This document shows positions 4,501 to 58,081 of a stretch of 64,000 bases of DNA, one piece after another. The notes under the pieces were generated by a model. The model was not told the DNA's origin and did not search any database. It saw only the letters and a program-made list of their open reading frames with translations. Each line of letters opens with the position of its first letter. Position 1 is the first letter of the stretch. This DNA comes from Laetmonice hystrix (lineage: Eukaryota). The stretch is taken from assembly GCA_965235115.1 (NCBI GenBank), contig OZ249436.1:37326001-37390000 (forward strand). The letters are read 5' to 3'. Both the position numbers and the translations under genes were made by a program.

Positions 4501-6151
4501 CAGTACATTTATTTCTACACTCCAGCATCGATCAAAACAAAAAGGGAACATCTCATCTGAGACTGTGAGTTGCCCACGTGCCAATACCTGAGGGCATTCT
4601 TTGTGTCAGCGCATGCGCATACAAAATGGAAAAGTTTGGCAGCCACAAGGTCCAGGATGTGGCAGACAGAGAGCCTAAAGAACGCGAATTAATTGTTTTA
4701 CTTTGATGAATGACGCACGCGTGTATAACCGTGAGATTGTGCAATGCCTGTGTTTCTAAATCTGCTCTCATCATGTGCTTCGGTTGGTGGGGTTTCCCTT
4801 TAATATGGAGTGCCGAGATCATCGAATGTGTCACTATAGTCGCTCCATCAATGTCAACGTAAATTTATGGCATGACAAAGCACTAAACTAAAGCATGTAC
4901 ATGGGAGAAGTTTTCACGGCAAGTTATTCTGATAAGTGCTGTTTACTTGCTTGCATGAGTATAACGTGAAACGGTCTGTCCTGCAGCGAATACATTTATA
5001 GACTGCTGTGGTTGTGTTGGATCCTGTCATTCAGCGCACCGAAAAGTGTTGTGTTTGATTTTTGTTTGTTTTTGGACGATTGTTTGTGAAGAGAAAGGCC
5101 CCTTTCCTATGCACTTGGTTCTCGTTCATTATGTCATCGTCACCGACGAATTGAAGAAATGTAATTTTTTTTATTCTTCCTGGATAAATAAGGTCGATCA
5201 ACAGCACGTAAAAATAAATAAAAAAAATTAATCAGTCTTTTGTTTGCGTAAAGTCGCTGGTTTTGAACAATTTAAATTGAACGTTTTCGCTTTCACCGGG
5301 ATTTCGAGACCATCAGTCTCCACGGGGAAGCCTGCTGGTCTGGCGGGAAAAACACTCGACTTGACTTCCACCTTTGCGTTTTTACCATCTTACTACTGCT
5401 GTTTGTATACAATGTACTGCTGGAGTCCCTCGCTGTGCTCTACTTGATAACCCGCCAATGGCTAGCCGTATTCGCCTCACACAGACCTGCGAACTAAAAA
5501 AACGACTTTCAAACGCATGCTCAGCGTCAAGTGGGATTGCGATGTTTCGTGTCGGCTTCGCATTTCAATATATCACCGCAAAGGGCTGACATGTAGGGCT
5601 ACAGTCGCTTACAATGTGCCACGATGTTGTGCCAGCAGATTTAATCAGCGTGAACGTGTCTGGCTAGATTGTGTATCGTGGCAGGTGCGCCTTCAACTTC
5701 TCATTGTACATCTCATCCCGATGTAATGTTACTTCACCGCGTGACGCTTCTAAATTAGAGTTTACGTAGACGCTCCACACAGCGGCGCACCCGGCTACAG
5801 GAACATTACCTGCTATGGTGAATCATTTCCTTATACTACTTACAACCTTCGCGACTTGGCTCGATACAACATACAGTCTCGGTCTTTTTCGGTCGTAACG
5901 TGTGAGGTTACTTTTCTTTAATTCCTCTTCAGATGTCTGTCTAATCTGCAAGGAAATCCTTACGAGATTCTAGGTGTTTCTATTAAAATTACCAGTGCTT
6001 TAAGAATCACCATAAAGCCCATCAAAGGAAGAAAGACCATCATGGTCGCAGCTTTCTCTGTGCACCCGTAATAAAAAAAACTGACGGAGTCCTTCTTGCA
6101 CTTTCATCGCTAAACCAATAAGTATGGAATAAAGTGGAAAAAAACACTTAC

Positions 6152-7128
6152 CTAAAATTACTGCACGGATGGATCACCCAGTTACCGGCTGCTTTTTGCC
6201 TCATCTTCTCTTTCATTAATGCATTCTTGTTACCAAAGAGTTTCATTGCCAGTTTATTATCCGAAGGTTGGAAGAACGATATAATTTGATCCTTCAAATA
6301 ACTTGTAGAACTGGACGCCTTACAGTCAACCTCCTTGAGAGGGGACAGTTCCTCCTTCGGAGTGCCATACAAACTTACATCATCTCCTATAAAATGTATA
6401 CGCGCCTCTCTCCTGTAATTTTTATCCGGGCTTAGATAATCCGACATGATGGATTCCCTATCCTCATCCATTGTTATCGTTATGGTGGGATTATGTTCCT
6501 GGTTAGGCGTGTTAGGTTCGGAATCGTAATTTTTGTTTGACCTTATTGAGCCCATTCTGGTACGTTTCAGTTTCAAACTTGGAAACCTTTTGATGCCGAC
6601 CCCCTTACCGTTGGCGACGCGCGTTCTGAGCGGAGAGGGCGGAGGAGTTATGGCTCGGTCGATCTGAGGCACGTTGTTTTCGTCCGTCGGAATCAGCTCT
6701 CGGCTGTTATACACTCGATCTGCCGACGTTCGCTTCCGTAACTTTTCATGCCAGATGCCCTCGGCGCTGTCGTACTTGTCTCGACCGACATGGCCAATGC
6801 TCGAGTCCCTGGAGTCCGTTGTGTGCGGCGTGCTGGCTACCGTGCTTGCCGTTACATATCTCTCCCGCGTGTTGGCCAGGCCATCCTTGCTGTTATAACA
6901 CTTATCAGTCGACGAGCTGTTATCAATCGACGTCCGGCTGCTACTATAACTGCTGGTCGCTGTGTTAGTACCTGCAGTACGTTCAGGCTCCGAGCTTGCC
7001 CTCTCGAGGGGGGGTCGGGTTATGTGTTGGTATGACCGACCCCGCATGGCCTGTGGTAGTTTGGGCGGACCCGGAGCCGTGGCGATGGAGTTCGTGTCCA
7101 TTTTACTCATGGGTGGTGACACATCCAT
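6152..7128 (-). CDS. HCN: First coding exon of an HCN/Ih hyperpolarization-activated cyclic nucleotide-gated cation channel (long N-terminus plus HCN-domain region, up to ...HPCSNFR)
   Basis: ORF ends in SFFQPSDNKLAMKLFGNKNALMKEKMRQKAAGNWVIHPCSNFR, the HCN pre-S1 signature, preceded by SLYGTPKEE as in invertebrate Ih proteins. The ORF 'stop' is really the donor AG|GTAAGT at 6152/6151. An in-frame TGA lies just upstream of the ATG at 7128. Confidence 0.92.
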
Positions 7129-7148
7129 TTTCTTTTCTACTCAATGGA

Positions 7149-11830: not shown

Positions 11831-14541
11831 TCCACTAGGTGTACCTTCAAATACTTTGTAATTGCCTTTTCCCCCTTCACGGTTTTTGCACCGATGTCAG
11901 ATCGTGGCAGGTCGTAGGGAAGACTTGAGCGTGTCTTTGGTGTAGTTGTGGGGGAAGTCCTGAACAATTGCAAAAGTTAGCAACAAAGTCGTTGTCCCAT
12001 TTTCGTCGTGGTGCAAGTTTCAAAATGTTCAAAAAGATCGTGGCGCTTTACACGCTCGCCATGGATCATCATATGTCATAGACAGTGGTGTTGTAGTAGT
12101 GTAGTGACGTCACACGTCGTGTAAAGCCTACCTCACACAGTTAACACTACACGATTTTCAAACGACATGACAATATATGTGAGACACGACAAGACAGAAC
12201 AAATTTTCTTGTGTTATCGTAAAGCCGCCTCACACATCTAATACTATTTACACCTAACAACTAGAAAGTTATCGCCCTATTCGCGCCTGAGTAGGGGAAT
12301 GCTATACAGATGGCCGTATGATCTGCATCATCATTATTTAAAACCCATGGTTGGCCTTTAGTAATCTACCCCACTCGTAGCAATCCCACCTCAGTTGAAT
12401 CATAAGCAGGCTCATAACTTCAGCAACGGCCACTAGGGGGATGCATTTTACTGTGACGCCACCTGGTGTGATAAATGTGCATCCACTCACCTTGTGTTTG
12501 AACCGGCCGCGCAAAGCTCCGAGGGTGTTGCGGTCAGTAGCTTCAAGGAAACGCCGCCCTTCTCGTACTAGCATGAGCTGTACGTACAATCTCTACAGCA
12601 AACGAGTCACTAATCGCTTATCATTCACGGAAGTCATTTTTTTCTATTTTTAGGAGTTCACTCCTGTTTAAATTAATATATTTTAAAATTCTGTATTTGG
12701 CACACACACCCAGGCACTGGTATAGTCACTGCAGTTAGAATCAAAATGTATGTTCATTCACGGAGGCATAGATCCTTGGGATGTACACACACGCCGAGAG
12801 TTTATTTTCTCACCGTGTTGTTCCTGTCGCTCCGACACGTATCAAAAGCCTGCTAAGTTCGGAGTGCTGGTACAACCAAGGTATAGTAGATGTTGGCCTC
12901 AAGCCAGGGCAAGGCTCGCAGCCGTGGCTCAGATCCACATTGGCGACAGGCAGCTGGCTTGGGGGGATCTTCTCAGATCTCTTTGCACCGCCGTTGTGTA
13001 AATTCTCCAAATTATAGTAATATATGGTAGTAATGTTTACATGATGGAAATGGTACTCCAGTGGAGGTCAATGGTACAGTAGGCGAGGCAATGGGACCAC
13101 TAGGAGATGTCTGCTCTCAGTAATCAATACGAGCCTGGATTTACCGGGTTGTCTCAAGCGAGGCGGACGAACGATGGTCAGAAAGCCAGGCTTAGAGGAT
13201 GAGTAGAGCAGCTCGGTGGCCGGTCGTTGTTAGGTGATAATGTCGGTGCCACGGTGGGCTGGGAGGCCGGCTAGCCACGTGCTTCGTTGTCGGTCGCAGG
13301 CCCGAAATCTCTGTTATGGAGGTCGTAGTGCTCAGCATCCGAGGCGGTGGCAGCAGCAGCAGCGGTAGCAGCGGCAACTTCTGCTGAAATATACGGGATC
13401 AATGCTTGAGACATTGAGTATGCCTGTGAACTATTACAGTCACAATAGTGGCTGACGAGATAAGTTAATCCCGTTACCCCAGTGTAATATTCATGATAAT
13501 TAGACCCGCACGTAAATTACTTTCTATGTCACACTGAGGCTGAACTTGCAATGGTTATACCATTAATTGGAATGTAAACTCTTTTCTCCATATATTCGCA
13601 CCACGCCCAACAAATCTCTGGGGGTTGTCATGGGAACAGGCCCATGTTTACGTTAAAGGGATGTAAACCGCAAACGTTACGGAACATCATTTTGTTGGAT
13701 TTCACTTTCTACATTTTTGGCCCTCTTATTTTTTAAGCGGGGCCCTCGAATTCTGCTTTCTACCTCCCCTATACCAGTACCTTCTAGTTCTTCTAAGTTC
13801 TAGCTAAAATGTAGGAGTGACTCTACTCTCCTATAAATTATAATCCTTGGTCAAAATACCGGGCACGTCATCAATCCGGAGTTTGTCAGTAGTATATGAA
13901 AATGGCAGTGTTAATACGGTTAGCTAAACGTTACGCAGGACTATCAATATGTAGACTATATTGATTTTTGTTATGTTTCGGGAGGGGAAATTTAAATAGT
14001 AAGTAAAATATTACATTTGTTACAGTCAAAGTTGGTAGACTTAAAGATTAAAAAATATATAATATTGTTCAAAACGTTACTGACTTCTGAATTTTATGCA
14101 GGCCTAGGCCTATAGGTTACTGAACATTATTTTACATCTCCGGAAGAGCCGGGAACCAAACCAATCCTCCTTTAAATTTTATCGTTTTTCTTCATCAAGC
14201 TCAGAGCAGGTAAATCGACACTGTGGCTAATGGCCAATTCGTGTTCGTGATCCTAAGCTTTCGATACCACAGATCTGGAGGCCATCACATCCAGGAAAAC
14301 TCTGATACCCTGGGTAAAATTTGAACCTCGAAGGTTGCCAATTTCATGTTTATCGATTTGATCACTGCATCAAACAGGACCTAAGCCTAAGCCTAAGTAA
14401 GGTCAGACAGCCGACCCTATCATGTGAACAGATTCGAGGCCGAAAGGGCCTTTTGGCAATATTGCGTAGCAATCTGCATTCTAGTTCTCCCACACACATT
14501 TCAGGCACGGCAGAAGCAATTTCGGATTGGGGGGGGGGGGG

Positions 14542-15267
14542 CAGGCGCGGATCCAGGAAATGTGAGGGGGGGCCCATTGGGCTAAGGCCAACCTACGAGC
14601 GCCGAACTGAGGCGCAAAGTCCCTCCCCCAAACAATTTTGAAAAATAGGTACTCAGAAACTCGTTCATATGGCGTTTTGGGACCCAACAGAATCTCTATG
14701 AATAGCTAGGCTGATTTTTTCACAATTTAGCCGGCCTATTCAGAAACTTTCTCTGAGGAAGAAATTTTCAGGCTGATTTAAAGGATTTAATTCAATTATT
14801 TTATATAAATTTTACAAATTGGCGAAACTATTGTAGATACGATTATGTTCCGTAACACTGCCTACTTGCCTATTTCAATTTCTTAAGTACTTTTTTAAAA
14901 CATGTAAAAAAAAAAAACCCAGAAAATCTCATTCTGGAAAGATCGACATAGGCTACGTCTTTTTTCAGATCTGCAGACAACATTTAACCTTCTTCACTTG
15001 CCAGAGGCTGAACTGAAGCTGTAAAAGCAGAAGTTGGAAGATCTCTGCCTAGGCCTACACCAAAGAGCGTATGATAAATTCATTCATCGGTCTTTGCCTA
15101 ACCACGCCCCTGGCCATGTGACAGCCAGGATACCAGCAAAGATAGATCTACTGCTAGGACCTAACGTTAGGGCTAGGCTGTTCAGTCCACACTGTAAAAT
15201 TATTTTTTGATCGTCGGGGTGGGGGGGGGGGGGGCTGGCCTGGGCTCCCCCCGTGGATCCGCCACCG
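14542..15267. mobile_element. hAT-like MITE with poly-G/C subterminal tracts
   Basis: Imperfect TIRs caggcgcggatcca / tggatccgccaccg; related ends at ~15.3-15.45, ~21.17 and 29.52-29.68 kb. Confidence 0.5.
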
Positions 15268-16300
15268 CCACCGGGGGAGCCGAAGGGGGCCTTGCCCCCC
15301 CCCCCCCCTCCAATTGCCCCAATAAAGATTGAACTTTCATTAGGCCTATACAAACACTTGAACAGTGAAACACAATGACTCATGTCATGAGACGACTGTG
15401 TCGCGGATCTTGCCCCCCACCCCTTCAGAAAAACCGGCTACGCCCCTGAGTAGGGGGCCTAATCTAACGCTAGGCCTAACGTTATAAAGTGGTTTAGATT
15501 AGAGCCTAGAGAGTCGCCAAGTCTCGACATACCCGCTACGTGAAATCATTCTATGTCTATGGTGAAATGTAAGCGTCCTCACCACATCAGCCTGATCAGG
15601 CTCATTCATGAATCATGTTTACACTTGACGCCCGCGGCACACTGTGTAGTGGAGGCGGGATCAATACGTCATACCACGTGCTGATTCATGGTTTGTGACG
15701 TCATAGGCCGATTGTAATCACGATGATTGTGTGACGTTAAGACGTTCGTTTGTCAAGTACTATGACGTGTCATGACAAGCACATTGTCACTAACCACAGA
15801 TGCACAGATGATTTGCTGGGGTGAAACGGGCGGCAGAGCTGGCCACCCACAAACGCCGCCCGCTTTTCATAATGCAGTCTTAAAATTAGGCAGGTTGGGA
15901 AAATCAAATATAATATTAGGCCTAAGTAGACCTAGCCACACCTCTCCTTTAGGCTTTATTTCTTCGTTTATTTGCACTAGGCCGGTGGGTAAGGTCGGGT
16001 AGTATGGGCACCCTTTTTACATATAGTCTAGGCCTAGGCCTATTTGGTTGTCGAATGAAAGAAACGTATGAATTGATAGTAGGGCCTACATCCGTCTAAA
16101 GTTTATATGAAACAGTTTTGATTTCTCAAGAACATAAGCTATTCATAAACTCGTTTACTGTTCGCTTTTTTTAAAAATCGAAGATATAAAATTTCGTCAA
16201 ACATGCCCATATTACCCGAGAGCGTGGGAAATATGGGCACCCGTGCTCATATTACACTCTCAACGGGATGCCCATAACCTATTTGTTATGGGAAGGAGTA

Positions 16301-16926
16301 GGGGAAGGTGGGGTAAAATGGCCTAGGCGGGTCATATGGCCCACCCCATTATCTGAGCTGTTAGCTGCTGCCATCTAGCGTTGACTATATGTACTGTTAG
16401 TCTATGTGATGTACGTCTTGGAACAAGCCATGCAGACGACGTCAGTTCATCCAGTGCCCGACAGATGATCGAAGTCAAAAAGTGACGTCTCTGACCTAAG
16501 ATAGGCCTTAGTATGGCAGACTAGATGTCATCACTTGTAATCAAGACAGCCTGGAGTGATTGTACCCATTGATAAGTCAGTTAGTAAATTAATTTATAGG
16601 ATAAAAGAATCCAACTCTCTCATGCGTACCTCTTGTATGACATTTACAGAACATGTGAGTTGGCAGGTGGGGCAATATTAATTTTACCCCATATAGGTGG
16701 GCCATTTTGTACCCATTGGGCAAAATGGCCCACTTTGGCAAAATATTTCTTGGCCGCAGATTTTCCTGGAAATGGCTTGTAGGATTCATGTTCACTTCAT
16801 CTATGTTGCTGCTGATAAGGTCATGTTTCAATTGCATAGATCTATAGTCAGCTCCTCTTCGTAGTGCATTAACTTATGTAAAAATCACCCTGAAGCTTAA
16901 GGTGGCCATTTTACCCCACCTTCCCC
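16301..16926. mobile_element. MITE with perfect 23-bp TIRs and TA TSD
   Basis: TA-ggggaaggtggggtaaaatggcc ... ggccattttaccccaccttcccc-TA; empty site reconstructs as agTAct. Confidence 0.88.
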
Positions 16927-17388
16927 TACTGTTGAAATGGAAAGGGCGCATAATCCAGTTGAATACCTAAAACCGCTATACCCTAAATTTAACAGACCAC
17001 AACATGATCCAATTCTAGAATTTCAGCAGACCTAGATCTACATTAGTAGGCCTAACCACATTCGAATATTTCTGAATAATATTGATAATCGAATGTTCAG
17101 TGTGCCCATATTACCATTAACCGTTTATAATGTAGGCCTAGGCCTAGATCTATGTATGGAAGACAAATGGAGGGTAATAATTATGAGCATCGTATAGCCG
17201 CCTTTAGCCTACATTATGGTCTACTTCAAGTGGACCGTGCTCGGACCGGACCGGGTCCACCTGAGTGGCACCGTTTACACTACACAGTTTGTAGGGCCCC
17301 CCCCCCCCCCCTACTATCTGGGCCGGGGACGATGAGTCGCCTCGAGTCACGACCGGAAACCTCACTCGCCGCGTTTACATCACGGTCC

Positions 17389-17390
<2 letters not shown>

Positions 17391-17421
<31 letters not shown>

Positions 17422-19076
17422 TTCCACAACAATCGCCTAGTCGGCGTTCTTCCTTGTGTGCGGGTGGTCAAAGGAGTCATACATGATTACAGGATTACCG
17501 TTCATACATGTGACAAACATTAAACTCCCAATAAACAAATCAAATCAAATCAAATCAAACAAATCTAATCAAAGCAGAACTCAAAATGTGAGAGGACTCA
17601 TACATGATCACTACTATTCATACAGACGCTACTATTGTAATGAACTCCCATTAAACAAATCAAAATCAAATCTAATCAAACAAGTCCAATCAAAATATAA
17701 TCAAAATACAAACAAATCACGAAACAAACATAAGTCGAAATGATCAACATAATGGATATAACACAGATGATTAGTTGGGTTTCGGGTGTGCGGTTGCGTT
17801 TAAATAATGTCTCAGGTATTAATAGTTAATCAAGGGATTACAGGAATTGGGCTATTGCTCTTTTAAACGTTTGTGAGCAACGAATACTCTGTACATCAGT
17901 GTGGAGCCTGTCCCACAGCTTTAGGCCTCGGTGCATGGGGCTTCTGTTATAGAAGGCATTAGTGGCTCGCCGGTGTACAAAATGTAATTTTCGGTCTCCA
18001 CGTGTTCGTAGTCTGGGGTTAACAACTGCCTCCCCCAACATGGCTTTTTTGTGCATAATCATTAACATTTGTCGTTCTCTTCGGACTGATAGGTAATCAA
18101 CTCTATTACATGTATGTAGGTCAGAGACAGAGAGCTCGCGCGTTCGCACTCGCAGGCAAATGCGAAGTGCTCGATTTTGTAATTTTTGTAATCGTTCATA
18201 CTCCACACGGTTGGCACCTTCATGAACGAAAGAACAATAGTCAAAGATTGGGAGAATAGTTTGCTTGTACACTGCTTGACACGCTCCTTTTGTTAAAGAA
18301 TTCCGTAGTTTACTCAATTTAAAGATTCTATAGTTTGCCTGTTTAGCAACTTTGTTTATATTGCACTTGAACGTGAGTTCGCAATCAAGTTCAACCCCTA
18401 AATAGCAATATGTCGTTGTGGTAGGTAATAACGTATTACCCATAGTAATTTCTAGTTCATCTGGGTTATGGAACTTATTTAATGACCCGAACCACATGAC
18501 CATGGTTTTCTTCTTATTAACGGTGAGGCCATTTTTGACCGTCCAGTAGTGTAGGCGGTTAATGTCTTCCTGTAACATGGCTTCTGCTGTCGCAGGAGTC
18601 TCAGCACTTACATATAACATTAAATCGTCTGCAAACATGGGACCTTGACAGTGTATAAGTACCTGCGTTATCTCGTTTATAAACAGGTTAAACAGAAGCG
18701 GCCCCAGGGTTGACCCTTGCGGTACACCGAATTTGACGTCTCTTACCGCTGATCTCTCATTGTTAACTAGTGCACACTGTTTTCGATCACTTATATAGCT
18801 AATTAACCATTCCAACACGTTTTCGGGAATACCAATTTGTGACAGTTTGCGTGAAAGTAATGTGATAGAAACACTATCAAAGGCCTTTTGGAAATCCACA
18901 AATGCTGCAGCCGTTATCAGGCCCTGGTCTCTTGCAGTGTAAAGGTCATTGGTAACTTTAAACACGGCCTCACTCGTACTACGCCCTCTGCGAAATCCAT
19001 ACTGTTGTTTTGGAAAGAAGTTCTTCTCCTCGAGTAATGTAGTTAAATAACTATGTACGATTTTCTCCATTATTTT
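17391..19076 (-). mobile_element. 5'-truncated non-LTR retrotransposon (L2/CR1-group-like LINE) with poly(A) tail
   Basis: 29-nt T run at 17391-17419 (minus-strand AATAAA running into poly-A), ~420-bp 3'UTR, uninterrupted RT frame. Confidence 0.92.
17838..19076 (-). pseudogene. LINE ORF2 reverse transcriptase domain and C-terminus (endonuclease lost by 5' truncation)
   Basis: Motifs QYGFRRGRST, FVDFQKAFDSV, GVPQGSTLGPLLF, MFADD, N.KKT, YCYLGV, ILPIFDYC; no internal stops. Confidence 0.92.
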
Positions 19077-19766
19077 CAAGTGGACCGTGCTCGGACCGGA
19101 CCGAATTGCGCGCATGTGCAGTACCGTCTCACTGCAGACAAGTTGACTGGGCCCGGTAGGCTACCCTGTGTGACACGTTTACACTGCCACTTATGGGCGG
19201 GGTACCGTCCTCGGTCCGCACAGAGATCACCTCCTTCTGGGGTATATCGGACCGGTCCACTTTAGGTCCAGACTCACAGGTAAATGTAAACGGGGCTGTC
19301 ATTTAGGTAGTAGTGTCGGGGTCCCATTTTTTTCAAATTGATCTGATAGTTTTGTATGATATAAAGTCCATTCATGATTGTCAGTAACCTCCGACATAGG
19401 CCGTCTAAATTGCAAGAATACCAAACGTTTAATGCCTTATGATGCATGGAGCACTTTAATTTCACACATGTTGACGCAACCACATGTCAACTGTAGGCCT
19501 ACTATATTTTATAATCTGTCTTACTTTTACCACAACAACGAAAGTTCTCACGACTAAATGCTACCAGTGTTCCTATACTCACCAGGACGGACCGTTGTAG
19601 ACGGATTGTGGACCCTTTTTCTCTTTCCGTAGACTTAAGGAAAGAGAAATGGGTCCACAATCCTGTTAGCGGCAAGTAGGGCCTACAAGACTGTGCGGCG
19701 GAATAAATTTGTACATGTTCTCCCGAGGACACCTTTGCAACGCGTAGACTCTATGATCAAAACTTT

Positions 19767-20203
19767 TTAACACAAGTCACATTGAAAGGAAAATTGATCT
19801 TTTCCGACGCCGGCACATTCACCGTGCATCAATGCTTTGCAATATTAGGCTAACACTATAGGCCTATCCAAAACCGTCCAAAACTCTGGCTTCGTTGTTG
19901 AGAATGTTTTCTCTTCCCAGTCTTCGTTATTTCGCCCCCTTTCTTGTCAGTAGCTTTGGGCCCACTTGGCTGGGTGTTTCTTGTTTTTTTGTTGGATGCA
20001 CACTTAATTCCATCAGTAGATATTTCTAGGCCTAGATCTAGGCCTATAGGCCTCTTCTTCCTACACACCATCTCAGATTTTGCTTTGGCACTTGATCTTT
20101 TTTTCTTTGCCTCGACTTCCAGTTTATGGGGAGAACTTGTTATAATATAATGTATAGCATGACGGATCTTTCGCTTTTTGGTCGTTGCTTTGGGTTGAGC
20201 CAT
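19767..20203 (-). pseudogene. Remnant of pogo-like transposase C-terminus (IITSSP + K-rich tract + PHD-type Zn finger)
   Basis: ORF has KKRK...IITSSPHKLEVEAKKKR; after frameshifts 19844-19767 reads YCKALMHGECAGVGKDQFSFQCDLC*, preceded by FWI. Confidence 0.65.
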
Positions 20204-21355
20204 TGTCCTTGGACATTGTAATCAGATCATGGAATGACACTGCATCATTAGGAGTAGGCCTAGACCTCTCTATAGGCCTACTATAGGCCCTAAGTGCAAT
20301 AAATTCAGCGCGGATAATATGGGCACCACTTGGGGTAATATGAGCACCGTGCTCATATTGGATTTTTTCGTGGGGCCCATATTACCCAGCGGGATAGCGC
20401 GCCAAATTCTTCGCCGGCATCAAATACACGATCGGTATTCGCCTATTATCGTCATCGCTGCTCTTTCTTCGGAAGGTTTGCAACCTCTCAAAACTCTAAT
20501 GACCACCATACTCCAATTTCTTCAGAATCTAGAAGGCATCATGTTCATAGAAAAATCTTAAGGAAATGAACAAAAAAACAGGCAAAGCGACTCACCTCAA
20601 CGATCTTAACAACCTTGACAATCAAAGACGCGCGTCATCAACGTCATAAACCGAACTACAGTGTAACGCAAGGTGGCAGCACCAATTCTGCATAGATTAT
20701 GAAATATGCGGGGTGCCCACATTACCCGCTATGCCCATATTACCCGACCTTACCCTACTGCGGTAGGCTTTTCGAGCTTGATCTATCCATTTCATTTCAT
20801 TGGAGGAAGAAGGAGGTCGAGGTGGACGCTTTTTGGCCTTCCTAATTCAAAAGTTTTCTGGGGAGGACCCAGAGCACACCCCCCGCATGCTATGGATAGG
20901 CTAGGCCTAAATGCTTTGAGAAACTTCAGATGCCAGAACTTCTTCAGATGCCAGGAAATAGCGGGGGGGGGGGGGTTGGGGGTTGGCCTTCTTTTAGCCT
21001 AGGCCTAATTCAAATAGCCTATCTTCTGCCAGAACTTCTGGGGAGCCCCCCCCCCCCCCCCCCCACGTAGCCTATGCACCATAGTCTGACCTCACGTGCA
21101 TGACATCATTAGGTCATAACATAGTCTAGACCTATTGGACCCCCCCCCCCTTCAAAAAACTGGATCTGCCCTTGAGGAGCACCCCCGTTTGGCGTTAAGG
21201 GGGTGGGGGGTAGGCATCTGGTAGGCAGGGGACCAGGCTATGAACACCCCTCTAGATTCTTTGTTTACTTTCAACAATAATTTATTTACATAAGAAGTTA
21301 ATTTTGGGTCTAGAACTCCTTGGTTTCTTTCGAGAAAAAATAATCAACCGAGGGG

Positions 21356-21403
21356 TGCTATCAATAAACCCCCTCGCTATCACTCGGGGGTTTATTGATA
21401 GCA
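21356..21403. repeat. Perfect 18-bp hairpin with 12-nt loop
   Basis: tgctatcaataaaccccc / gggggtttattgatagca. Confidence 0.85.
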
Positions 21404-21450
21404 ACACGAGCAAAAACAGTATTTCAACCGTACAAAATACAAGTTACAAG

Positions 21451-21515
21451 CGTGGCCGAATGGGCAGAGAGGCAGACCTATGATCCGGACATCCACTGTT
21501 CGAATGCCACCAGCA
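21451..21515 (+). mobile_element. tRNA-like SINE head fragment
   Basis: A-box TGGCCGAATGG and B-box-like GTTCGAATGCC at tRNA-like spacing; no convincing cloverleaf. Confidence 0.45.
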
Positions 21516-22012
21516 GCGCCCAAAAGGCATACGGGTCTCGGAGTCAGTAACCACTCAACCATACCGGCGATATCATGGCTAAAATAAAATGGACATATCC
21601 AAGTGGATTACTCTTTTAAATTACATACAGGCGTATTCCACGGGTCATATCCACGTGTATTCCACGGGAAATCCATGAGTTTCGCCTGCTGGGTATTAAC
21701 CAAAATAATGGTTGTGATGACGGTGCATATTGGTCAACAAACCACCAATCCACATTTGGTTAATAGGGTATAACGATATTGGATTGGTTATTTTAACCAT
21801 GAGATCGATTGGACACATATCCATGCAGAAGATTGGTTGATTTTAACCAGGATCCTGGTTGTTTTAACCAATCTGTTTTTAGAGTGTAGGCCTATAACAA
21901 AAGGTTTAGCCTAAAAAAAAGTCACCCTCGAAGCTACACTGCCGTTACAGTCAGGCATGAGCTACAGTCAGGCTGCCATTGTGAGTTTGTCTTGACTTTG
22001 GGTCCGCCCCTC

Positions 22013-22258
22013 CTACAAACCTATAAAGATTAGGCTAAACCCAACTTGTATTTTGCCCAGTTGTCGGAACAATTGGCAGCACAACGTACAACAGGCTTGT
22101 GCCAAGTTGTGGGCGGTGGCTCCCAGACCCAGTGGCAGAGCGCTCTCTGGCCGTGACAAATATTTTTCGGATGCTGCTGAGTGCTGATTACTCCAAGGAA
22201 ACTCAAATAATTTGTTGTCCTGGTGGTCACAGAACATAGCTACACACCGTCGGGACAT
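22013..22258 (-). pseudogene. Frameshifted THAP zinc-finger remnant, probably transposon-borne (Kolobok-like)
   Basis: MSRRCVAMFC...LFEFP, then in another frame W.PPP...C...NWAKYKLGLA; upstream TGACGTCA and a TTAA-AGATG terminus at 22515. Confidence 0.55.
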
Positions 22259-25200
22259 TTTTTTTAAAATGTATTTTATAAAATGAATATCACTCTAGAT
22301 CACAGGCTACGTAACGCCTCGGGCAGTGGGAATCCCCAAACGTCTGAAAGACCGTTCTCGATTTGACGTCATTATCTGGTGCGGGTTTTGAATGGCATTT
22401 CGTTTCTAGGGCCGTTGCTATGGGCCGTTCTAATTAACGGGTGGACATAATAAAACGCACATTCAGTACATATCATGAGATGCCTTCTAAATGACAGGTG
22501 ACGGTACATCTTTAAACTAGTTAAAGGCTATAGATTCTACGTCGAGACTCCTTTGCTATAGCCTATTGAACAATAATTTGTTAGCAAAGTAATGTTATGA
22601 AAACCTGACTCACTAGGTCCATGGTACCCGTTGCTATGGAAATCTGCTTTGTCAGTCTATAGTTGCTAGGCGACAACATAGTTGCAGTCAAACACAATTT
22701 CTCGAGGCCAACGGAAGCCATCAGAGTGCATGCATGGAATTGGTCAACAAATAATTTGGTGAGGCCAGCCGATGATCGGGAATTCTGCTTGGCTGTTTAG
22801 GCTATGTCGGGGCTTCCGGGGCTTCCGTTGCTAGGCATATATGGGCCATAAACGTAGGCCTACTAAATACTGTTAGGCAAGGGTAATGTAATAAATATTA
22901 TGTCAATGAGTCAATTGATAACATAGAGTTCAAATAATATAGTTCGCATCCTCTTGAGGGCAGATTTATTTGGTTCATAATAGGCCCGTTTTTTAGGGAA
23001 GTCTGATTTATCTGGGCGGTTGCTAGGCAACAACACAGTTCCCACGTAAGTTAAATGACAAATTATGATATTCCGGAGCGAACGGAGCGAACGGAGCGAA
23101 CCATCTAGCTCGAATTTGTGTCGCGCATGGGGACTGCAAAAAGATCGTTCTTAGTCTTCGTTATAGGCCTACATAGGTTGCAGGGCTAACCTATATATTG
23201 ATTTTATAATTATAGACCCATGCATAGGCCCTATTATCCCAAACTATTCTCTCGTTTTCCGACCAAATATCATGCTAAAACGTAATATCATACCGGCGGA
23301 GGGCTTTCATGTTTTAAATAGTCGCTTAAATATTTTGAGGTGAACAATTTTTGGTATCGTACAGCCTGATGTCTGTGCACATTTCATAAAATGTGTTTAC
23401 GATTCCAATCATCGTGTCGAAGTCTCTCTCAACCTGATTTGCCTTAGCATGGAATCATGTCTCGGCTGCCTTGTTTTTGGCAGGGATATCATTTTAGTCA
23501 TTACAACCATGTCTCCCTCGATCGGCAGATATGAATAATTCAGCAATGAACAAACCTTTAAATAAGGCAGCTAGCCCTTTTACTGAATTACTGATGCATT
23601 AAACCTTCAAATCGACTACCCTTCAGATCCATAAACACGAGTGAGTTGTCTATGTCGCCAAATGGCGAAGATTCCAGATATGTGGTGGCTGGAGCCGTCT
23701 GACATCAATCAGGCTCGTATTGCCGTCTTGGAGAATGATGATGGAGCACCTTCACGGAACCGACGCCAACTCCATCCGGGCACACCTCCGATGGCCCGAT
23801 GTACAGGCTGACCGTTTCTTTAGCGACTCTTGTGGGAGTGATCGACAAGAGACGATGACAAGCGTAGTACCTCAGGATATTTGTTATATCAGTAAGGATC
23901 ATCAGCTGCTGTTCGGGAGGATGTCTGCTATTGGATCATAAAGAAATAAGTTTTGTTGGCTTAGACTGAGCCAGCGTCTTGAGTTAACCCCTAGGAATTA
24001 TGATCGATGCATGGCACTCGTATAAAATTTATGCTGAATGTTGCTACAAGCCTCTCGTTTTCTTAACATACTGACATGACGCAATGGTATCACTCACTGC
24101 TTTTGCAATTACGTTCCTCTTCTCGATATTAACTCCCATGACCCAAGAGTGTCATTTACATTCAAGGACAGTTCATGTTCGCCATATTATTAGGTAGCCT
24201 TGTCCTTTTGTGGCCTTTTATGGTGATACGTTATATAATGACCATGAATGGATCAACGTTAGATTTTTCGAGAGAAATTTTTGTTTTAAGCTGACAGGAC
24301 GACCCTACTTCCGGTGACTTTTCGATTCTGATGAATGATGATAGTAATGCAGCTACTGTATCCATATAGCGCTATATACAACAGCTGGAAATTGGGGATA
24401 TGGGATATGGTTATAAAAGTGTTACCTACGAAAAGGTGCGCCTCCGTATGGAATATGGCCTTATTGGCTTACTTTTTCGGCCAATTACGATCAAAGGCGA
24501 TAGCTTTATTTACATTTTTACATCATATTTAATTAAACTGATTCTAAATTAGATTCAAGCAACCACGTTAATGTACATTCTCTGGTGTGTTGTATCACTG
24601 ATAAAATAAATCGATATCAGCTGAGGAGAGAGGATACATGAAATATATCCAATTACTATGCGCTGAATATGTGCTTAGTATTGTGTATTATTATGCCTGA
24701 AAGTGCAAAAGGAGTTTATTGGACCACTACCCGAGTTCTTAATAATGGGTTTTTAGAGAAGATATGAGCCGCTGAGAGCTACTCTAGTTTTTTATGTCCT
24801 TACTACGTGTTGTAAATGTGCTTCCATAAAGAGCATTATCTTGTATGTTCGACGTATTAGTACACCGACCAGATTTAAGATCGTTTACTCTGCAACACGT
24901 TACTCTGTAACGTCTCAACACGAGAGGTCCGCCAGATTGTTAGGTTCTTTATCTCAGCCCAACAAAACATCTCTATCTCCTCTATATCCTTACGGGGTTT
25001 TTTCCATTTTTTAAAAGACCCATAGTTATAAGACCTGCAGCTGCTTTGATCTTAAGCTAAATGCAGGTCTTAGATTTTCAAAAAACGGGCACAGGATAAT
25101 TATTACATCTCGAATATTGTTCTTTTTATGGTGGTGCATGGTGTGGGTGGGGTGTTGGGGGAAGGGGGTGCCTGCTCGTGCCTTCGTACCGAAGCACCAT

Positions 25201-33403: not shown

Positions 33404-34189
33404 GATATCAGACCGACAAGTTGTGGCTTATGGACCGTTTCATCTGTGGAATCCATAACGTGAGATATCAGACCGACAAGTTGTGGCTTATGAACAGTTT
33501 CATCTGTGGAATCCATAACGTGAGATATCAGACCGACAAGTTGTGGCTTATGAACAGTTTCATCTGAGGAATCCATAACGTGAGATATCAGACCGACAAG
33601 TTGTGGCTTATGAACCGTTTCATCTGTGGAATCCATAACGTGAGATATCAGACCGACAAGTTGTGGTTTATGAACCGTTTCATCTGTGGAATCCATAACG
33701 TGAGATATCAGACCGACAAGTTGTGGCTTATGGACCGTTTCATCTGTGGAATCCATAACGTGAGGTATCAGACCGACAAGTTGTGGCTTATGAACCGTTT
33801 CATCTGTGGAATCCATAACGTGAGATATCAGACCGACAAGTTGTGGCTTATGGACCGTTTCATCTGTGGAATCCATAACGTGAGATATCAGACCGACAAG
33901 TTGTGGCTTATGGACCGTTTCATCTGTGAAATCCATAACGTGAGGTATCAGACCGACAAGTTGTGGCTTATGAACCGTTTCATCTGTGGAATCCATAACG
34001 TGAGATATCAGACCGACAAGTTGTGGCTTATGGACCGTTTTATCTGTGGAATCCATAACGTGAGATATCAGACCGACAAGTTGTGGCTTATAACCGTTTC
34101 ATCTGTGGAATCCATAACGTGAGATATCAGACCGACAAGTTGTGGCTTATGGACCGTTTCATCTGTGGAATCCATAACGTGAGATATCA
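33404..34189. repeat. Tandem array of 13 near-identical 60-bp units
   Basis: Unit gatatcagaccgacaagttgtggcttatg(g/a)accgtttcatctgtggaatccataacgtga; one unit is 59 bp; array starts and ends on gatatca. Confidence 0.97.
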
Positions 34190-35042
34190 CAAAAGGAACA
34201 ACCGGTGCTCAAAGTAGGCGGAGACGCACGAGGATGGGGAGTGTGCATTTACGGGTTGGAATGGGTAAGTAAACAGTCCAGCCGCCATGGGAACGTGTCG
34301 TTAGAGATAGGCCTAGAGTTATTCCGAGTAGGCCTGCCTTTAGTCCGACAGACTCTTATACCTATCTACTATAGGGACCTACTACCTCGGAGGACACCGG
34401 AGTGGGATAGAGCCTCTCGGTCTAGCCTGCCTTTTGAATACCGACAGACAGGTCTAGTTTTCAGAGCGGTCGGATATAGTATAGAACTAAAATCTGCCCA
34501 CACCGTGAAACATTGTAGGCCTAAATGTTTCCCCGTGACTGAAAAATAAATCTTGATTTGTGAAGGTCGCTTTATACGTTCTTTCAAAAGTGAAACAATT
34601 GTTTACGTGTTTTTTTTGGACTGCAAAAATAGGTTATATTTCATAGATTGACTATCATATTCGGCAAACACGGATGCAAATTGTTTACATAGTGTCTCTT
34701 ACAGGGTTCGAGAGTGCCATTTCAAAATGAACGAGGTCGAAATAATCTGGCCCCGTCTCCGGCAACCTCGGATCGGTCATACTATAAGCTGATTTACCCA
34801 ATGTTACTTCTTGATAGTGCGAGGAATAGCTTGGCAATCGGATCATTTATCTTAATAACATAGAATAGTACCTACATAATTATTATGAATCTTTAACCCT
34901 GCCAGAACGGGGTTTACAAATCCCAATACCCAATGACCCTGAAAGTGCCCCACGGCCAATCGTTCCTAGGCTGGCCAACGGGAAGAAATTATTGATTCTC
35001 GGGCAAAAAACGCACCCCCTCCCCCTCTTAAAGAGGCGCATG

Positions 35043-40584: not shown

Positions 40585-43500
40585 AGACTGGCCGTCATCC
40601 CAAATTACAGACTGGCCGTCATCCCAAGGTACAGGCTGGCCGTCATCCCAAGGTACAGACTGGCCGTCATCCAAAGGTACAGACTGGCCGTCATCCCAAG
40701 GTACAGACTGGCCGTCATCCCAAGGTACAGACTGGCCGTCATCCTAAGGTACAGACTGGCCGTCATCCCAAGGTACAGACTGGCCGTCATCCCAAGGTAC
40801 AGACTGGCCGTCATCCCAAGGTACGACTGGCCATCATCCCAAGGTACAGACTGGCCGTCATCCCAAGGTACAGACTGGCCGTCATCCCAAGGTACAGACT
40901 GGCCGTCATCCAAGGTACAGACTGGCCGTCATCCCAAGGTACAGACTGGCCGTCATCCTAAGGTACAGACTGGCCGTCATCACAAGGTACAGACTGGCCG
41001 TCATCCCAAGGTACAGACTGGCCGTCATCCCAAGGTACGACTGGCCATCATCCCAAGGTACAGACTGGCTGTCATCCCAAGGTACAGACTGGCCGTCATC
41101 CCAAGGTACAGACTGGCCGTCATCCAAGGTACAGACTGGCCTCATCCCAAGGTACAGACTGGCCGTCATCCCAAGGTACAGGCTGACCGTCATCCCAAGG
41201 TACAAATTGGCCGTCATCCCAAGGTACAGACTGGCCGTCATCCCAAGGTACAGACTAGCCGTCATCCCAAGGTACGACTGGCCGTCATCCCAAGGTACAG
41301 ACTGGCCGTCATCCCAAGGTACAGACTGGCCGTCATCCCAAGGTACGACTGGCCGTCATCCCAAGGTACAGACTGGCTGTCATCTCAAGGTACAGACTGG
41401 CCGTCATCCCAAGGTACAGGCTGACCGTCATCCCAAGGTACAGGCTGGCCGTCATCCCAAGGTACAGACTGGCTGTCATCCCAAGGTACGACTGGCCGTC
41501 ATCCCAAGGTACAGACTGGCTGTCATCTCAAGGTACAGACTGGCCGTCATCCCAAGGTACAGACTGGCTGTCATCCAGAGGTACGACTGGCTGTCATCCC
41601 AAGGTACAGACTGGCCTTCATCACAAGGTACAGACGGGCTGTCATCCCAAGGTACAGACTGGCCGTCATCCCAAGGTACGACTGGCCGTCATCCCAAGGT
41701 ACGACTGGCCGTCATCCCAAGGTACGACTGGCCGTCATCCCAAGGTACAGACTGGCCGTCATCCCAAGGTACGACTGGCCGTCATCCCAAGGTACAGACT
41801 GGCTGTCATCCCAAGGTACAGACTAGCCGTCATCCCAAGGTACGACTGGCCGCCATCCCAAGGTACAGACTGGCCGTCATCCCAAGGTACAGACTGGCCG
41901 TCATCCCAAGGTACAGACTGGCCGTCATCCCACGGTACAGACTGGCCGTCATCCCAAGGTACAGACTGGCCGTCATCCCAAGGTACGACTGGCCGTCATC
42001 CCAAGGTACAGACTGGCTGTCATCCCAAGGTACAGACTAGCCGTCATCCCAAGGTACGACTGGCCGCCATCCCAAGGTACAGACTGGCCGTCATCCCAAG
42101 GTACAGACTGGCCGTCATCCAAAGGTACAGACTGGCCGTCATCACAAGGTACAGACTGGTTGTCATCCCAAGGTACAGACTGGCTGACATCCCAAGGTAC
42201 AGACTGGCCGCCATCCCAAGGTACAGACTGGCCGCCATCCCAGGGTACAGACTGGCCGTCATCCCAAGGTACCACTGGCCGCCATCCCAAGGTACAGACT
42301 GGCCGTCATCCCAAGGTACGACTGGCCGTCATCCCAAGGTACAGACTGGCCGTCATCCCAAGGTACAGACTGGCCGCCATCCCAAGGTACAGACTGGCCG
42401 CCATCCCAAGGTACGACTGGCCGCCATCCCAAGGTACAGACTGGCCGCCATCCCAAGGTACAGACTGGCCGTCATCCCAAGGTAAAGACTGGCCGTCATC
42501 CCAAGGTACAGACTGGCCGTCATCCCAAGGTACAGACTGGCCGCCATCCCAAGGTACGACTGGCCGCCATCCCAAGGTACAGACTGGCCGCCATCCCAAG
42601 GTACAGACTGGCCGTCATCCCAAGGTACAGACTGGCCGTCATCCCAAGGTACAGACTGGCCGTCATCCCAAGGTACAGACTGGCCGTCATCCCAAGGTAC
42701 AGACTGGCTGTCATCCCAAGGTACAGACTAGCCGTCATCCCAAGGTACGACTGGCCGCCATCCCAAGGTACAGACTGGCCGTCATCCCAAGGTACAGACT
42801 GGCCGTCATCCAAAGGTACAGACTGGCCGTCATCACAAGGTACAGACTGGTTGTCATCCCAAGGTACAGACTGGCTGACATCCCAAGGTACAGACTGGCC
42901 GCCATCCCAAGGTACAGACTGGCCGCCATCCCAGGGTACAGACTGGCCGTCATCCCAAGGTACCACTGGCCGCCATCCCAAGGTACAGACTGGCCGTCAT
43001 CCCAAGGTACGACTGGCCGTCATCCCAAGGTACAGACTGGCCGTCATCCCAAGGTACAGACTGGCCGTCATCCCAAGGTACAGACTGGCCGCCATCCCAA
43101 GGTACAGACTGGCCGCCATCCCAAGGTACGACTGGCCGCCATCCCAAGGTACAGACTGGCCGCCATCCCAAGGTACAGACTGGCCGCCATCCCAAGGTAC
43201 AGACTGGCTGTCATCCCAAGGTACAGACTGGCCGTCATCCCAAGGTACAGACTGGCCGTCATCCCAAGGTACAGACTGGCCGCCATCCCAAGGTACGACT
43301 GGCCGCCATCCCAAGGTACAGACTGGCCGCCATCCCAAGGTACAGACTGGCCGTCATCCCAAGGTACAGACTGGCCGTCATCCCAAGGTACAGACTGGCC
43401 GTCATCCCAAGGTACAGACTGGCCGTCATCCCAAGGTACAGACTGGCCGCCATCCCAAGGTACGACTGGCCGCCATCCCAAGGTACAGACTGGCCGCCAT

Positions 43501-43942
43501 CCCAAGGTACAGACTGGCCGCCATCCCAAGGTACAGACTGGCCGCCATCCCAAGGTACAGACTGACCGTCATCCCAAGGTACAGACTGCATGCTGTCATC
43601 CCAAGGTACAGACTGGCTGTCATCCCAAGGTACAGACTGGCCGTCATCCCAAGGTACGACTGGCCGTCATCCCAAGATACAGACTGGCCGTCATCCCAAG
43701 GTACAGACTGGCCGTCATCCCAAGGTACAGACTGGCTGTCATCCCAAGGTACAGACTGGCCGTCATCCCAAGGTACGACTGGCCGTCATCCCAAGGTACG
43801 ACTGGCCGCCATCCCAAGGTACAGACTGACCGTCATCCCAAGGTACAGACTGCATGCTGTCATCCCAAGGTACAGACTGGCCGTCATCCCAAGGTACAGA
43901 CTGGCCGTCATCCCAAGGTACAGACTGGCTGTCATCCCAAGG
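40585..43942. repeat. 24-bp minisatellite, ~140 units
   Basis: Unit agactggccgtcatcccaaggtac with frequent 23-bp (ggtacgact) and gccgcc/gctgtc variants. Confidence 0.98.
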
Positions 43943-45013
43943 ACCCCAAGCATGATCATCGCCATCAAGCGGACTCGTGCTCAATCTGTGAACCGGCTCT
44001 TATTATTTCAGCGACATTTTCCCCGTTTTTGTTGTGGATGATTAGGTGTTCCGTGTTTGTCATTTATTGCATTTACTTAGAATTATAAGCAAGTGACGTG
44101 AGGATACAATGAATGACCGGGAATGCCTCTGAACTAATAAACGGCGTCTCTCGATTAGAGATGAAATTAATAAATCTGTTCTGCTCTAAACACAATAACT
44201 GTGACATTCAGAATCGCCCCCCCCCCCCGACCGCTGTACATGTGGCGCGAATGGATTCAATCAGCTATTTGTCTTAGGAGACATGTTTTTGCCAAGTGGC
44301 ACTGGAAACCACGCGTGGTCTACTAACGCCATCCAGTGCCGTATTCCAAAAGCGAAGCTGATTAAGTACATCCTTTCTATACTATCTAACACTTTCCTAT
44401 ACTGTTGAATCATCTGGGATTCAAAGTCCATGAAAGATTTCCACATCTACTACAGTCCAGACACACATATTGGAGCACTGCAACTTTGTGGTGGCGGTGT
44501 TATGCCATTACATACCAATGTCATTGTGTGGATAGAAATGAAAGCTTTGTTTGTGACATAATAATTATATGGTGGAGCTTCACGCCTCCGCCGATGACCT
44601 CAATCCGAGAAGGTTACTTTCTATGTAATTACGGATTCGGCAGAAAGATGACGGTTGACGTCCATAGTCCACCGTCAGCTAGTTATAATTATCATGTTTT
44701 CTGGCGGCCCAGTAATCGTAATGTATTGTACGTACAAATGGCTTCCTTTGTGTCTGGACCTTGGCAGTAATATCATTCCTAGATATTGATCCGGAGCCTC
44801 GATCTGAAGATTTCCTAGTTAATTCTCCGCCAGGTGGCATTGCCATCCCCCTAGGTAGCATTACTATCGCAACTTAAGCACCTTCTCAAATATAATAAAT
44901 CCCATTATTACATAATGTCTTATTTAACATTTCTGAAAAAAAAAAAACATGGGAAAATCGTGCCAACTTGTAGGCCCTACTAGATTCCTTTGTCTCAGTG
45001 CCATACACCCCTG

Positions 45014-45189
45014 GCCCTGGTTTTTAGTTCGTCATTTTACCAATCTTAAGACTGGAATTTTAAGACTGACTTGTGTTATGGTCTCTCATTGGCTGACTTC
45101 ATTTGAAGGACCAATCAGAAGCTCCGAAACAAGGATTCAATCTTAAGATTTGAATCTTAAGACTCAGTTTCCAAACTAAAAACCGGGCC
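45014..45189. mobile_element. Harbinger-like palindromic MITE (CWG flanks)
   Basis: ctg-gccctggtttttagtt ... aactaaaaaccgggcc-cag; internal tcttaaga palindromes and ccaatcag. Confidence 0.7.
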
Positions 45190-45226
45190 CAGGGGTGCGT
45201 TTCATACACCAAAAGCATCCTCCCAC

Positions 45227-52099: not shown

Positions 52100-52181
52100 G
52101 ACCCGGTTCCTAAAATCTTAAGATCTTACTTAAGTTTAGGCTTAACGCTTCTGATTGGCTGGTCGGCTTAGAAACCGGGCC
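52100..52181. mobile_element. Short Harbinger-like MITE, CTG TSD
   Basis: CTG-gacccggttcctaa ... ttagaaaccgggcc-CTG; contains ctgattggc. Confidence 0.65.
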
Positions 52182-56722: not shown

Positions 56723-57955
56723 AAGCTATTACAAAGCGTCATTTTCACATCTTTCATTAGGGATCCAGTCGAGGTTCCATCCTAAAAATGTCATTAGAAC
56801 GATCTATAGTCTTTAGCTTATAAACGTAGGCCGGCTGGGGAAGGCTTCCTGATTTGTGGAACAGTTGGCCGCCTGGTAAATGGTCCAATCACGTGACACG
56901 TTTTATCATGTCCCTTTTCCCCGCCACGTTAACCTCCTGCAATTATTTCTAGCGGTATCCAACCGTTGGCGATTGAGATATATTGAAAGCATCATCCTTC
57001 TATAACATAATGCCGGTAGTTATATGTTTGCCCCAGCTACATTATGTCCCACCGACGGATTTGGCTGACGGTGCTGGCCATCTAAAAATGCTCCAACTCG
57101 CGAACCGGGTTCCCGCATTTTATTAGAATGTGCCATTTACCATGATCAAATCAAATCCCTGTAACGCACAATGGCGCGTTCCCCTTCCAGACTGAGGGCA
57201 GTAATGAAACCATGCAGTTGTTGCCTGTGGAGGACGAACCATAATTGTTTGGTCACGCAGCCGTCAAGTCTGCACACATGGTTATATGTATGGCGCGCCC
57301 TCTCCAGTTCAGACATGCTTTGTCGTGTTCCTTATCTAGGAAAACAGTATCCTCCTATTTGACAACGGTAGTGTACATTTTGTGAAGGGTCGAATTGTTG
57401 GCATAATCTATAAACGGTTCCTGTCTGGCCTGGCGATAGAGGCCGACGCCCTTTTCGGCAGAGGGCTTTTGTATAGGCCGGCCCGCGCAGCTGGCTGCCT
57501 CACATTGTCAGTCCAGCCCTGAGCGTGATTGGCCACCACTTCGATACACATTTTGAGTAATTCCCTAGACGCAAAGTCCGTCCCTGGAACTGGCAAAAAC
57601 ATGTCCAGTCACGGAGCGGTTGCTTTGGTATACTGTCTCTGTGTTATACGTACAGAGTGTATACAGTATACCAAAGCGGATAATTAAACAAAAACTGATA
57701 ATACTTCAGTCGAATCTCTATCTCTCGAACTTTTATAGACAGCCCCTCCCCCCCCCCCCCCCCATGTGCTTTGGCTAAGATCCCCTTGTCACTATTACGA
57801 GGCGGCCCGGGTTTGTTTTTTTTGTATTTACTTATTTTTATTCCATCAACATCATCGTCCATCATCACTCTAGTCACAGAACTATAACTATAGTTCTGTG
57901 CTCTAGTCGTCATACTCCTTGGGACCCGAGGAACAGTCATTTTGGACCCGTCCAG

Positions 57956-58081
57956 GGCCCGGTTCACAAACAAAGTCAAGTCAATTTTAATTAACTTGAA
58001 ATCCCTTTTAACCAATCAGATTCAAGTAAAATTGACTTCAAGTCAATTAAAATTGACTTGACTTTGTTTGTGAACCGGGCC
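57956..58081. mobile_element. Harbinger-like palindromic MITE, CAG TSD
   Basis: CAG-ggcccggttcacaaacaaagtcaagtcaattttaatt ... aattaaaattgacttgactttgtttgtgaaccgggcc-CAG; central ccaatcag. Confidence 0.88.

Follow-up and report, generated by a model that had tools for sequence, protein, structure and literature searches.

Massed TA-bounded palindromes upstream of an HCN channel gene in Laetmonice hystrix: a probable, partly imported hotspot of transposon excision scars

We analyzed a 64,000-nucleotide stretch of the Laetmonice hystrix genome (contig OZ249436.1 of assembly GCA_965235115.1, positions 37,326,001 to 37,390,000, forward strand; hereafter the window), in which short modules, each a core between two TA dinucleotides and most often the 8-letter palindrome TAGGCCTA, are massed upstream of an HCN channel gene. 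From the letters and their copies elsewhere, we read this cluster as a hotspot of scars left by the excision of TA-targeting cut-and-paste transposons, partly imported with repeats, and we put the probability of this reading at about 0.62. Elements of the pogo/Tc1 type with GG...CC ends would be the best candidates for the source of the scars.

14099..23232, no strand: cluster of TA-core-TA modules, 46 of them within 14099-23171 and one more (GGCCC core) at 23225

Exact TAGGCCTA occurs 27 times in the window, with 21 copies within 14099-23171 and 6 elsewhere. An original prediction, made from the letters alone, had counted 21 copies in about 9 kb and some 6 outside; both figures and all 13 of its listed coordinates proved right. 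It had also expected well under one copy by chance, and Markov models of orders 1–3 gave 0.10–0.23 for this interval, the motif lying about 150-fold above the order-2 expectation inside the cluster, where no other non-tandem 8-mer seems to be as common. When the 27 motifs were placed at random on the TA sites of the window, 21 in 9,073 bases were never reached in 100,000 trials; with 23 independent loci, 17 in 9,073 bases were likewise never reached (100,000 trials). The GGCC core is also above chance outside the cluster (6 vs. 0.78 expected), and two small secondary module groups lie at 61300-61830 (4 modules) and 34308-34523 (2 modules). CpG ratios of 0.55–0.96 per kb did not clearly set the cluster apart.

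Counts of the cores between two TAs inside the cluster showed clear enrichment for GGCC (21 vs. 0.14 expected), GGC/GCC (12 vs. 0.87), GATC (5 vs. 0.13) and GGGCC/GGCCC (3 vs. 0.07). Marginal values were obtained for GACC (2 vs. 0.24), ACGT (2 vs. 0.14) and GAC/GTC (3 vs. 0.92), and no enrichment for GG/CC (5 vs. 3.65), GC (3 vs. 1.37) or CA/TG (11 vs. 6.3). Clear enrichment is confined to G...C cores 3–5 bases long. Ten cores pooled gave 46 modules on 644 TA sites inside the cluster and 21 outside, the 46 being made up of 21 GGCC, 12 GGC/GCC, 5 GATC, 3 GGGCC/GGCCC, 3 GTC and 2 GACC. The cluster also holds TA-AGCC-TA-AGCC-TA, a telomere-like hexamer doublet (14376-14401; AGCC is marginal, 2 vs. 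0.23).

Four public runs, from one sample and one study, cover the stretch and were used as contigs only, aligned to 13800-23500 at 80% similarity. Because this sample is possibly that of the window itself, the runs are not independent support. Tallies rest on the displayed indels (12 of 207 rows), substitutions (40 of 333 rows), joints (15 of 76), loose ends (24 of 1,431) and pieces (32 of 7,049). By contig depth, most of 14.4-22.5 kb (about three quarters of the stretch) is multi-copy, and about 2.2 kb (13800-14447, 15420-15986 and 22548-23500) is single-copy. The multi-copy part includes nested transposable elements, an outer element holding a miniature inverted-repeat transposable element (MITE) and element 2, which in turn holds a long interspersed nuclear element (LINE).

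15987..20755, minus strand: outer element, non-autonomous, with 24-base inverted repeats (GGGT start, 96% complementary)
16301..16926, no strand: non-autonomous MITE with GGGG...CCCC ends, perfect inverted repeats and duplicated TA, about 0.8% from its family piece
17196..19297, no strand: element 2, with short inverted repeats, a further left end (17368-17390) and the LINE inside
17391..19076, minus strand: 5'-truncated LINE, poly-A tail, open reverse transcriptase frame

Both GG-ended elements named in the original prediction exist, the MITE with TA on both sides and the outer element (GGGT...ACCC) with TA at its right side and T only at its left. The MITE has short terminal inverted repeats and a TA duplication in full, and its empty site is visible: where copies of the host family lack the MITE, 16276 is joined directly to 16927 and only one TA stands there. 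In two of two metagenome loci (L001 54-78 and L002 394-416, near letter-identical) the MITE terminus is followed by TA; both are animal-looking contigs, each carrying a single TAGGCCTA and a single TAGCCTA over some 3 kb. The TA duplication, empty site and metagenome termini show that this genome, and the cluster itself, contains GG...CC elements that duplicate TA. Their terminal bases, in the MITE and the outer element alike, match the GGCC, GGC/GCC and GGGCC cores. Judged by contig depth, the outer element is present in some tens of copies; it is about 2–3% from the family pieces and carries on its minus strand a basic open reading frame (ORF) remnant and a PHD-finger remnant (Pfam PHD_2 E=0.004 for 19770-19841, below its cut-off), a layout that resembles the C-terminus of pogo-type transposases. 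From this layout and the weak PHD match, the remnants are likely what is left of a pogo-type transposase gene at its 3' end. No homologue of ORF 19859-20221 was found among 105 candidates or 1.84 billion representatives, and its part 20050-20221 had no usable Atlas match. Element 2 has tandem left ends (17196-17390), and an exact 29-base repeat stands on both sides of the LINE (19075-19103).

Excision of Tc1/mariner elements leaves 2–3-base 3' overhangs, which end joining turns into a footprint between duplicated TAs (PMC3878927); the pogo-type element Passer leaves 0–4-base footprints and prefers transcription start sites, promoters and enhancers (PMC9976928). By the proposed route, an element would insert at TA and duplicate it, as observed for the MITE. 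The transposase would then excise the element and leave two terminal bases per flank, as Tc1/mariner chemistry suggests, and end joining that keeps both overhangs would give TA-GG-CC-TA. Judging from the core spectrum, trimming of one base would yield GGC/GCC and retention of a third G GGGCC. The new TA in each scar might conceivably be hit again, which would produce stacks. Finally, scar-bearing repeats copied later would bring in modules ready-made, as seen at four sites.

Like the footprints of Tc1, Sleeping Beauty and Himar1, the modules have a duplicated TA around a few terminal bases, and those at 16837 (+6) and 17205 (+5) show the extra bases at TA by which ITm (Tc1/mariner/pogo) footprints are recognized. 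Unlike them, the core here is GGCC, and the both-ends product dominates without enrichment of the one-end product; these scars are also natural rather than made in the laboratory, stacked, and dense, at about 5 modules per kb. With pogo and Passer they would share TA duplication, inverted repeats shorter than 40 bases, 0–4-base footprints and a bias to transcription start sites, promoters and enhancers (PMC7386202, PMC9976928). Most pogo families have TA duplications and short repeats (PMC7386202), and no mention of GG termini for pogo or Passer was found in the accessible text of PMC7386202 and PMC9976928. Pogo transposases have a DDE_1 catalytic domain with a DD29-56D triad and a helix-turn-helix DNA-binding domain; no DDE domain was found in the window, and the outer element (a deletion derivative) shows the basic and PHD remnants only. 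A literature search that covered few subscription papers found no paper on massed TAGGCCTA scars.

To judge individual modules we compared them with other copies of the same repeats.

16837..16844, no strand: TAGATCTA, six letters (GATC and a second TA) added at a TA of the MITE
17205..17211, no strand: TAGCCTA, five extra letters in the left terminal repeat of element 2
19846..19866, minus strand: TAGGCTA (19846) and TAGGCCTA (19859) within the PHD-finger coding remnant

Where the window reads TA-GATC-TA at 16837, the family has one TA only, and no template for the added letters lies nearby (40 bases). The six letters are absent from family contigs in four of four runs (depth, with/total per run: 2362/2362, 2102/4853, 856/2084 and 222/222), and the full-length MITE family piece (piece 23) covers 624 letters with 618, differing by this six-letter gap and five substitutions only. 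The comparison places the gain of GATC and TA later than the copying of the MITE. At 17205, the five extra letters are missing from the inner copy at 17368, from the right end and from four contigs of run X1 (loose end at 17210), and by this comparison were inserted at a TA. In PHD fingers, W-I and the second Cys are usually four codons apart; in the remnant the distance is 23 bases, 11 (6+5) above that, and the modules at 19846 and 19859 would accordingly be insertions of 5 and 6 bases. At 19512-19581 family contigs seem six letters longer than the window, which could be a scar missing from this copy.

Module load follows divergence, with none in the LINE at 0.2%, one local module in the MITE at 0.8% and 20 in the outer element at 2–3% (7 substitutions in 382, 8 in 360 and 8 in 257 in the family pieces). 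The LINE differs from its family contig at 3 positions in 1,644 bases, without gaps, and has no module on 126 TA sites; the observation that it lacks exact copies was correct, and the lack is due to its youth. In the single-copy contigs of the three deeper runs, 13800-14465 has 16, 32 and 27 gap letters with 3, 6 and 4 substitutions, and 15283-15986 has 23, 6 and 31 gap letters with 1, 2 and 1 substitutions. This hints at indel-rich DNA; the gaps are not itemized and we do not count them as evidence.

Several findings, gathered here and in the next two paragraphs, weigh against the scar reading. Among the six modules that could be judged against family copies, two are local insertions and four (16398, 19494, 19677 and 22031) are common to the family.

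19494..19501, no strand: TAGGCCTA common to the family copies, not a local insertion

The pieces over 19494 and 19677 (pieces 5 and 26) have gap letters that are all put in (30/30 and 22/22) with none left out, the 22031 module is covered by piece 20 without gaps, and the 16398 module is covered by piece 23, whose gap lies elsewhere. On these alignments the four are modules inherited with their repeats or, for short cores, matches by chance. The copy at 19494 is the sole testable exact TAGGCCTA and it is shared, none being directly shown as an insertion, and 11 of the 12 displayed indel rows (of 207) are not TA modules. An in-window paralogue (52797-52942) was too diverged to judge TAGGCTA at 14949. 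Over 22531-23210, three single-copy contigs with 0–1 gap letters gave no scar polymorphism; they carry the modules of 22559-23164, for which we rejected an assembly artefact, with the reservation that the sample may be the window's own. Since four of six judged modules are common to the family, repeats brought in part of the cluster. The earlier suggestion that the bases following TA are insertions thus holds at 16837 and 17205 and fails at those four, where other family copies have them too. Carried to its limit, import would make the scars real but the cluster mainly a nest of repeats from scar-bearing master copies, and nothing particular would be at work locally; the multi-copy share of the stretch is some three quarters, and 11 of the 21 TAGGCCTA lie in the outer element. 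We consider this unlikely, however, since the single-copy stretches hold 5 TAGGCCTA in 2,168 bases vs. 6 in 50,599 outside (about 19-fold, p = 4e-5, with post-hoc bounds), the GATC insertion lies in this copy of a young MITE, and the family piece over the left arm of the outer element is 33 letters shorter. The locally permissive domain proposed earlier is supported by the single-copy enrichment, with open chromatin as its putative cause.

Three stacks, in which neighboring modules share a TA, were found exactly as first described.

16024..16042, no strand: TA-GTC-TA-GGCC-TA-GGCC-TA, within the outer element's left arm
17133..17152, no strand: TA-GGCC-TA-GGCC-TA-GATC-TA
20027..20046, no strand: TA-GGCC-TA-GATC-TA-GGCC-TA, in frame within the basic ORF remnant

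The family piece that is 33 letters shorter covers 15987-16276, where modules total 24 letters and gaps are not itemized, and the stack at 16024 is probably local. That at 17133 may, with some uncertainty, be largely common to the family, as from_end values of 17 and 101 in run X3 suggest that no more than 3 of the 87 letters over it are missing from the family (at least 84 kept), depending on how that column is defined. One X3 contig has TAGGCCTAG before 19403, a two-module stack, where the window is three letters short (19397-19410). Stacks share 9 TA junctions vs. 3.2 expected (p = 0.002–0.003), and six of the nine join mixed types; the other three can be explained by slippage or tandem duplication, and the remaining six alone are not significant (p = 0.09). 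Such junctions raise the alternative that the host itself made the modules at fragile TA sites, without any transposon, by templated insertion or slippage (polymerase-theta-type repair, tandem duplication or palindrome correction). Five of the 23 GGCC/GATC entries do have a nearby template, and the five letters found at 17205 also stand 10 bases upstream of it, making a local copy possible there. But the core is identical in unrelated flanks, 18 of 23 entries (16837 included) have no template within 40 bases, six of nine junctions are mixed, and no host enzyme is known to add a fixed GGCC; host repair is for us a distinctly unlikely origin. Pure slippage was rejected as the module source, as were hairpin footprints of hAT elements, which are inverted flank copies and vary by site, unlike a fixed core in unrelated flanks that mostly lack a template.

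Excision scars also call for elements that should be found. No element with GA...TC ends is among the 25 longest TA-flanked inverted repeats of the window, and the GATC class would hence need a second family with such ends. Nor was an autonomous GG-ended element or its transposase found: the metagenome scan gave two loci with one end each, their ORFs unscanned, and the viral scan five loci without an inverted partner (best 6–7 mismatches of 18). A scan of prokaryote genomes for the element gave no locus, and one of viral contigs for the stack pattern gave none either. About 40–50 modules stand against two resident GG-ended elements, which would mean that nearly every insert has excised. Hairpin MITEs with GGCC/GGGCC ends occur at 45006-45197, 57950-58087 and about 52105-52183, presumably Harbinger-like; they have CAG/CTG flanks and were not taken as a scar source because they are not TA-flanked. 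In favor of the scar reading, the flanks of the modules show a weak palindromic bias: of 68 flanks, 22 have C at +1 (background 0.19) and 32 have A at +2 (0.32), with p about 0.006 for each position, uncorrected. Harbinger-type elements duplicate TWA. PIF/Harbinger and Fot were rejected, as A stands at +1 in only 14 of 68 flanks (background 0.30) and T-TA-A flanks are not favored, which argues against three-base duplications; that of Fot is TAA (PMC7386202). The one-overhang product, TA-GG-TA, is not enriched (5 vs. 3.65), and its analogue makes up 78% of somatic Tc1 footprints (bioRxiv 2025.10.09.681459). Of the original claim of repeated insertion and excision, then, the insertions at 16837 and 17205 and the matching GG...CC ends stand, while not every copy is local and GATC is unmatched.

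With the nested repeats removed, a core of 2–3 kb is left that took both the elements and the scars.

6148..7140, minus strand: first coding exon of the HCN channel gene (Pfam Ion_trans_N E=1.8e-25)
22630..23031, plus strand: four RFX X-box-like half or full sites (22630, 22662, 22827 and 23019) in single-copy DNA

The cluster lies 7-16 kb upstream of the HCN start codon, as had been stated. The best named relatives of the exon are from Dimorphilus and Capitella, as would be expected of an annelid, and tblastn with 120 listed relatives found no second HCN exon in the 64-kb window. Five of the eight X-box-like half-sites of the window fall at 22414-23027, with 0.011 expected per 450 bases; the sites at 22630-23031 were scored against the RFX X-box consensus. 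This group, 15.5 kb upstream of the HCN start, is a candidate distant promoter or enhancer and possibly serves ciliated or sperm cells. We take 15540-15860, single-copy and flanked by modules, to be a second candidate regulatory patch, on words resembling a CRE (cAMP response element), an E-box and a GC-box seen by eye. The scars are probably concentrated here by a small regulatory region drawing repeated insertions, and open chromatin would be the cause of the clustering. Alternatively, the scars would trace local hopping by resident elements and mark no open chromatin. The cluster is centered on two GG-ended elements, and Tc1 and Sleeping Beauty reportedly hop locally (PMC3878927); yet at least two core types (GGCC and GATC) need two families, reported hop ranges far exceed 9 kb, and elements that landed in a hotspot already there would give the same centering. 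We give this explanation the least credence of all those considered.

Only slightly more credible to us is that TAGGCCTA is the site of a dimeric transcription factor, amassed by selection in the HCN regulatory region. It is a palindrome, clustered upstream of a gene and adjoining the X-box-like sites, and it has a counterpart in Phytophthora, where TACATGTA is the commonest promoter motif (PMC3520976) and is bound by the MYB protein PsMyb37 (PMC11134190). However, the modules would arise as insertions in young transposons and in a dead coding remnant, their lengths of 5, 6 and 7 and the GATC core fit one site poorly, and selection leaves their origin unexplained; later co-option of modules as binding sites is possible. 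The Phytophthora motif is the nearest published parallel found, and it is likewise a TA-bounded 8-base palindrome, very abundant and upstream of genes. It differs in being treated as a transcription-factor site with binding shown, whereas here variants are shown as insertions. Its authors noted the reading as a Tc1 footprint, taCATGta being named as a rare one, and set it aside (PMC3520976).

Elsewhere in the window, tandem satellites with 60-base and 23–24-base units occupy 33404-34189 and about 40587-43950.

Excision footprints are a textbook product of single laboratory events, and here they have seemingly amassed around a candidate regulatory element. For the MITE, 1 scar in 48 TA sites vs. 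5 substitutions in 618 bases gives a ratio of 2.6, an order of magnitude only, from one event. If the reading of the cluster as excision scars is true, counting resident copies would badly underestimate transposon activity. More tentatively, and in our view less likely than not, hit-and-run transposition at open regulatory DNA may be a major germline mutational process in this animal. Scars would then outnumber resident elements about 20 to 1 and form at each TA about as often as point mutations or more often, and the density of TAGGCCTA would be a fossil map of germline-accessible chromatin, to be read from the letters alone, perhaps with the TA-bounded promoter palindromes of other eukaryotes as further cases. 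Scars of this kind would provide a readable record of where cut-and-paste elements strike. The regulatory DNA of such animals would turn over through insertions of 5–7 bases, and among the abundant palindromes described as 'promoter motifs', some may have begun as mutational scars and become binding sites later.

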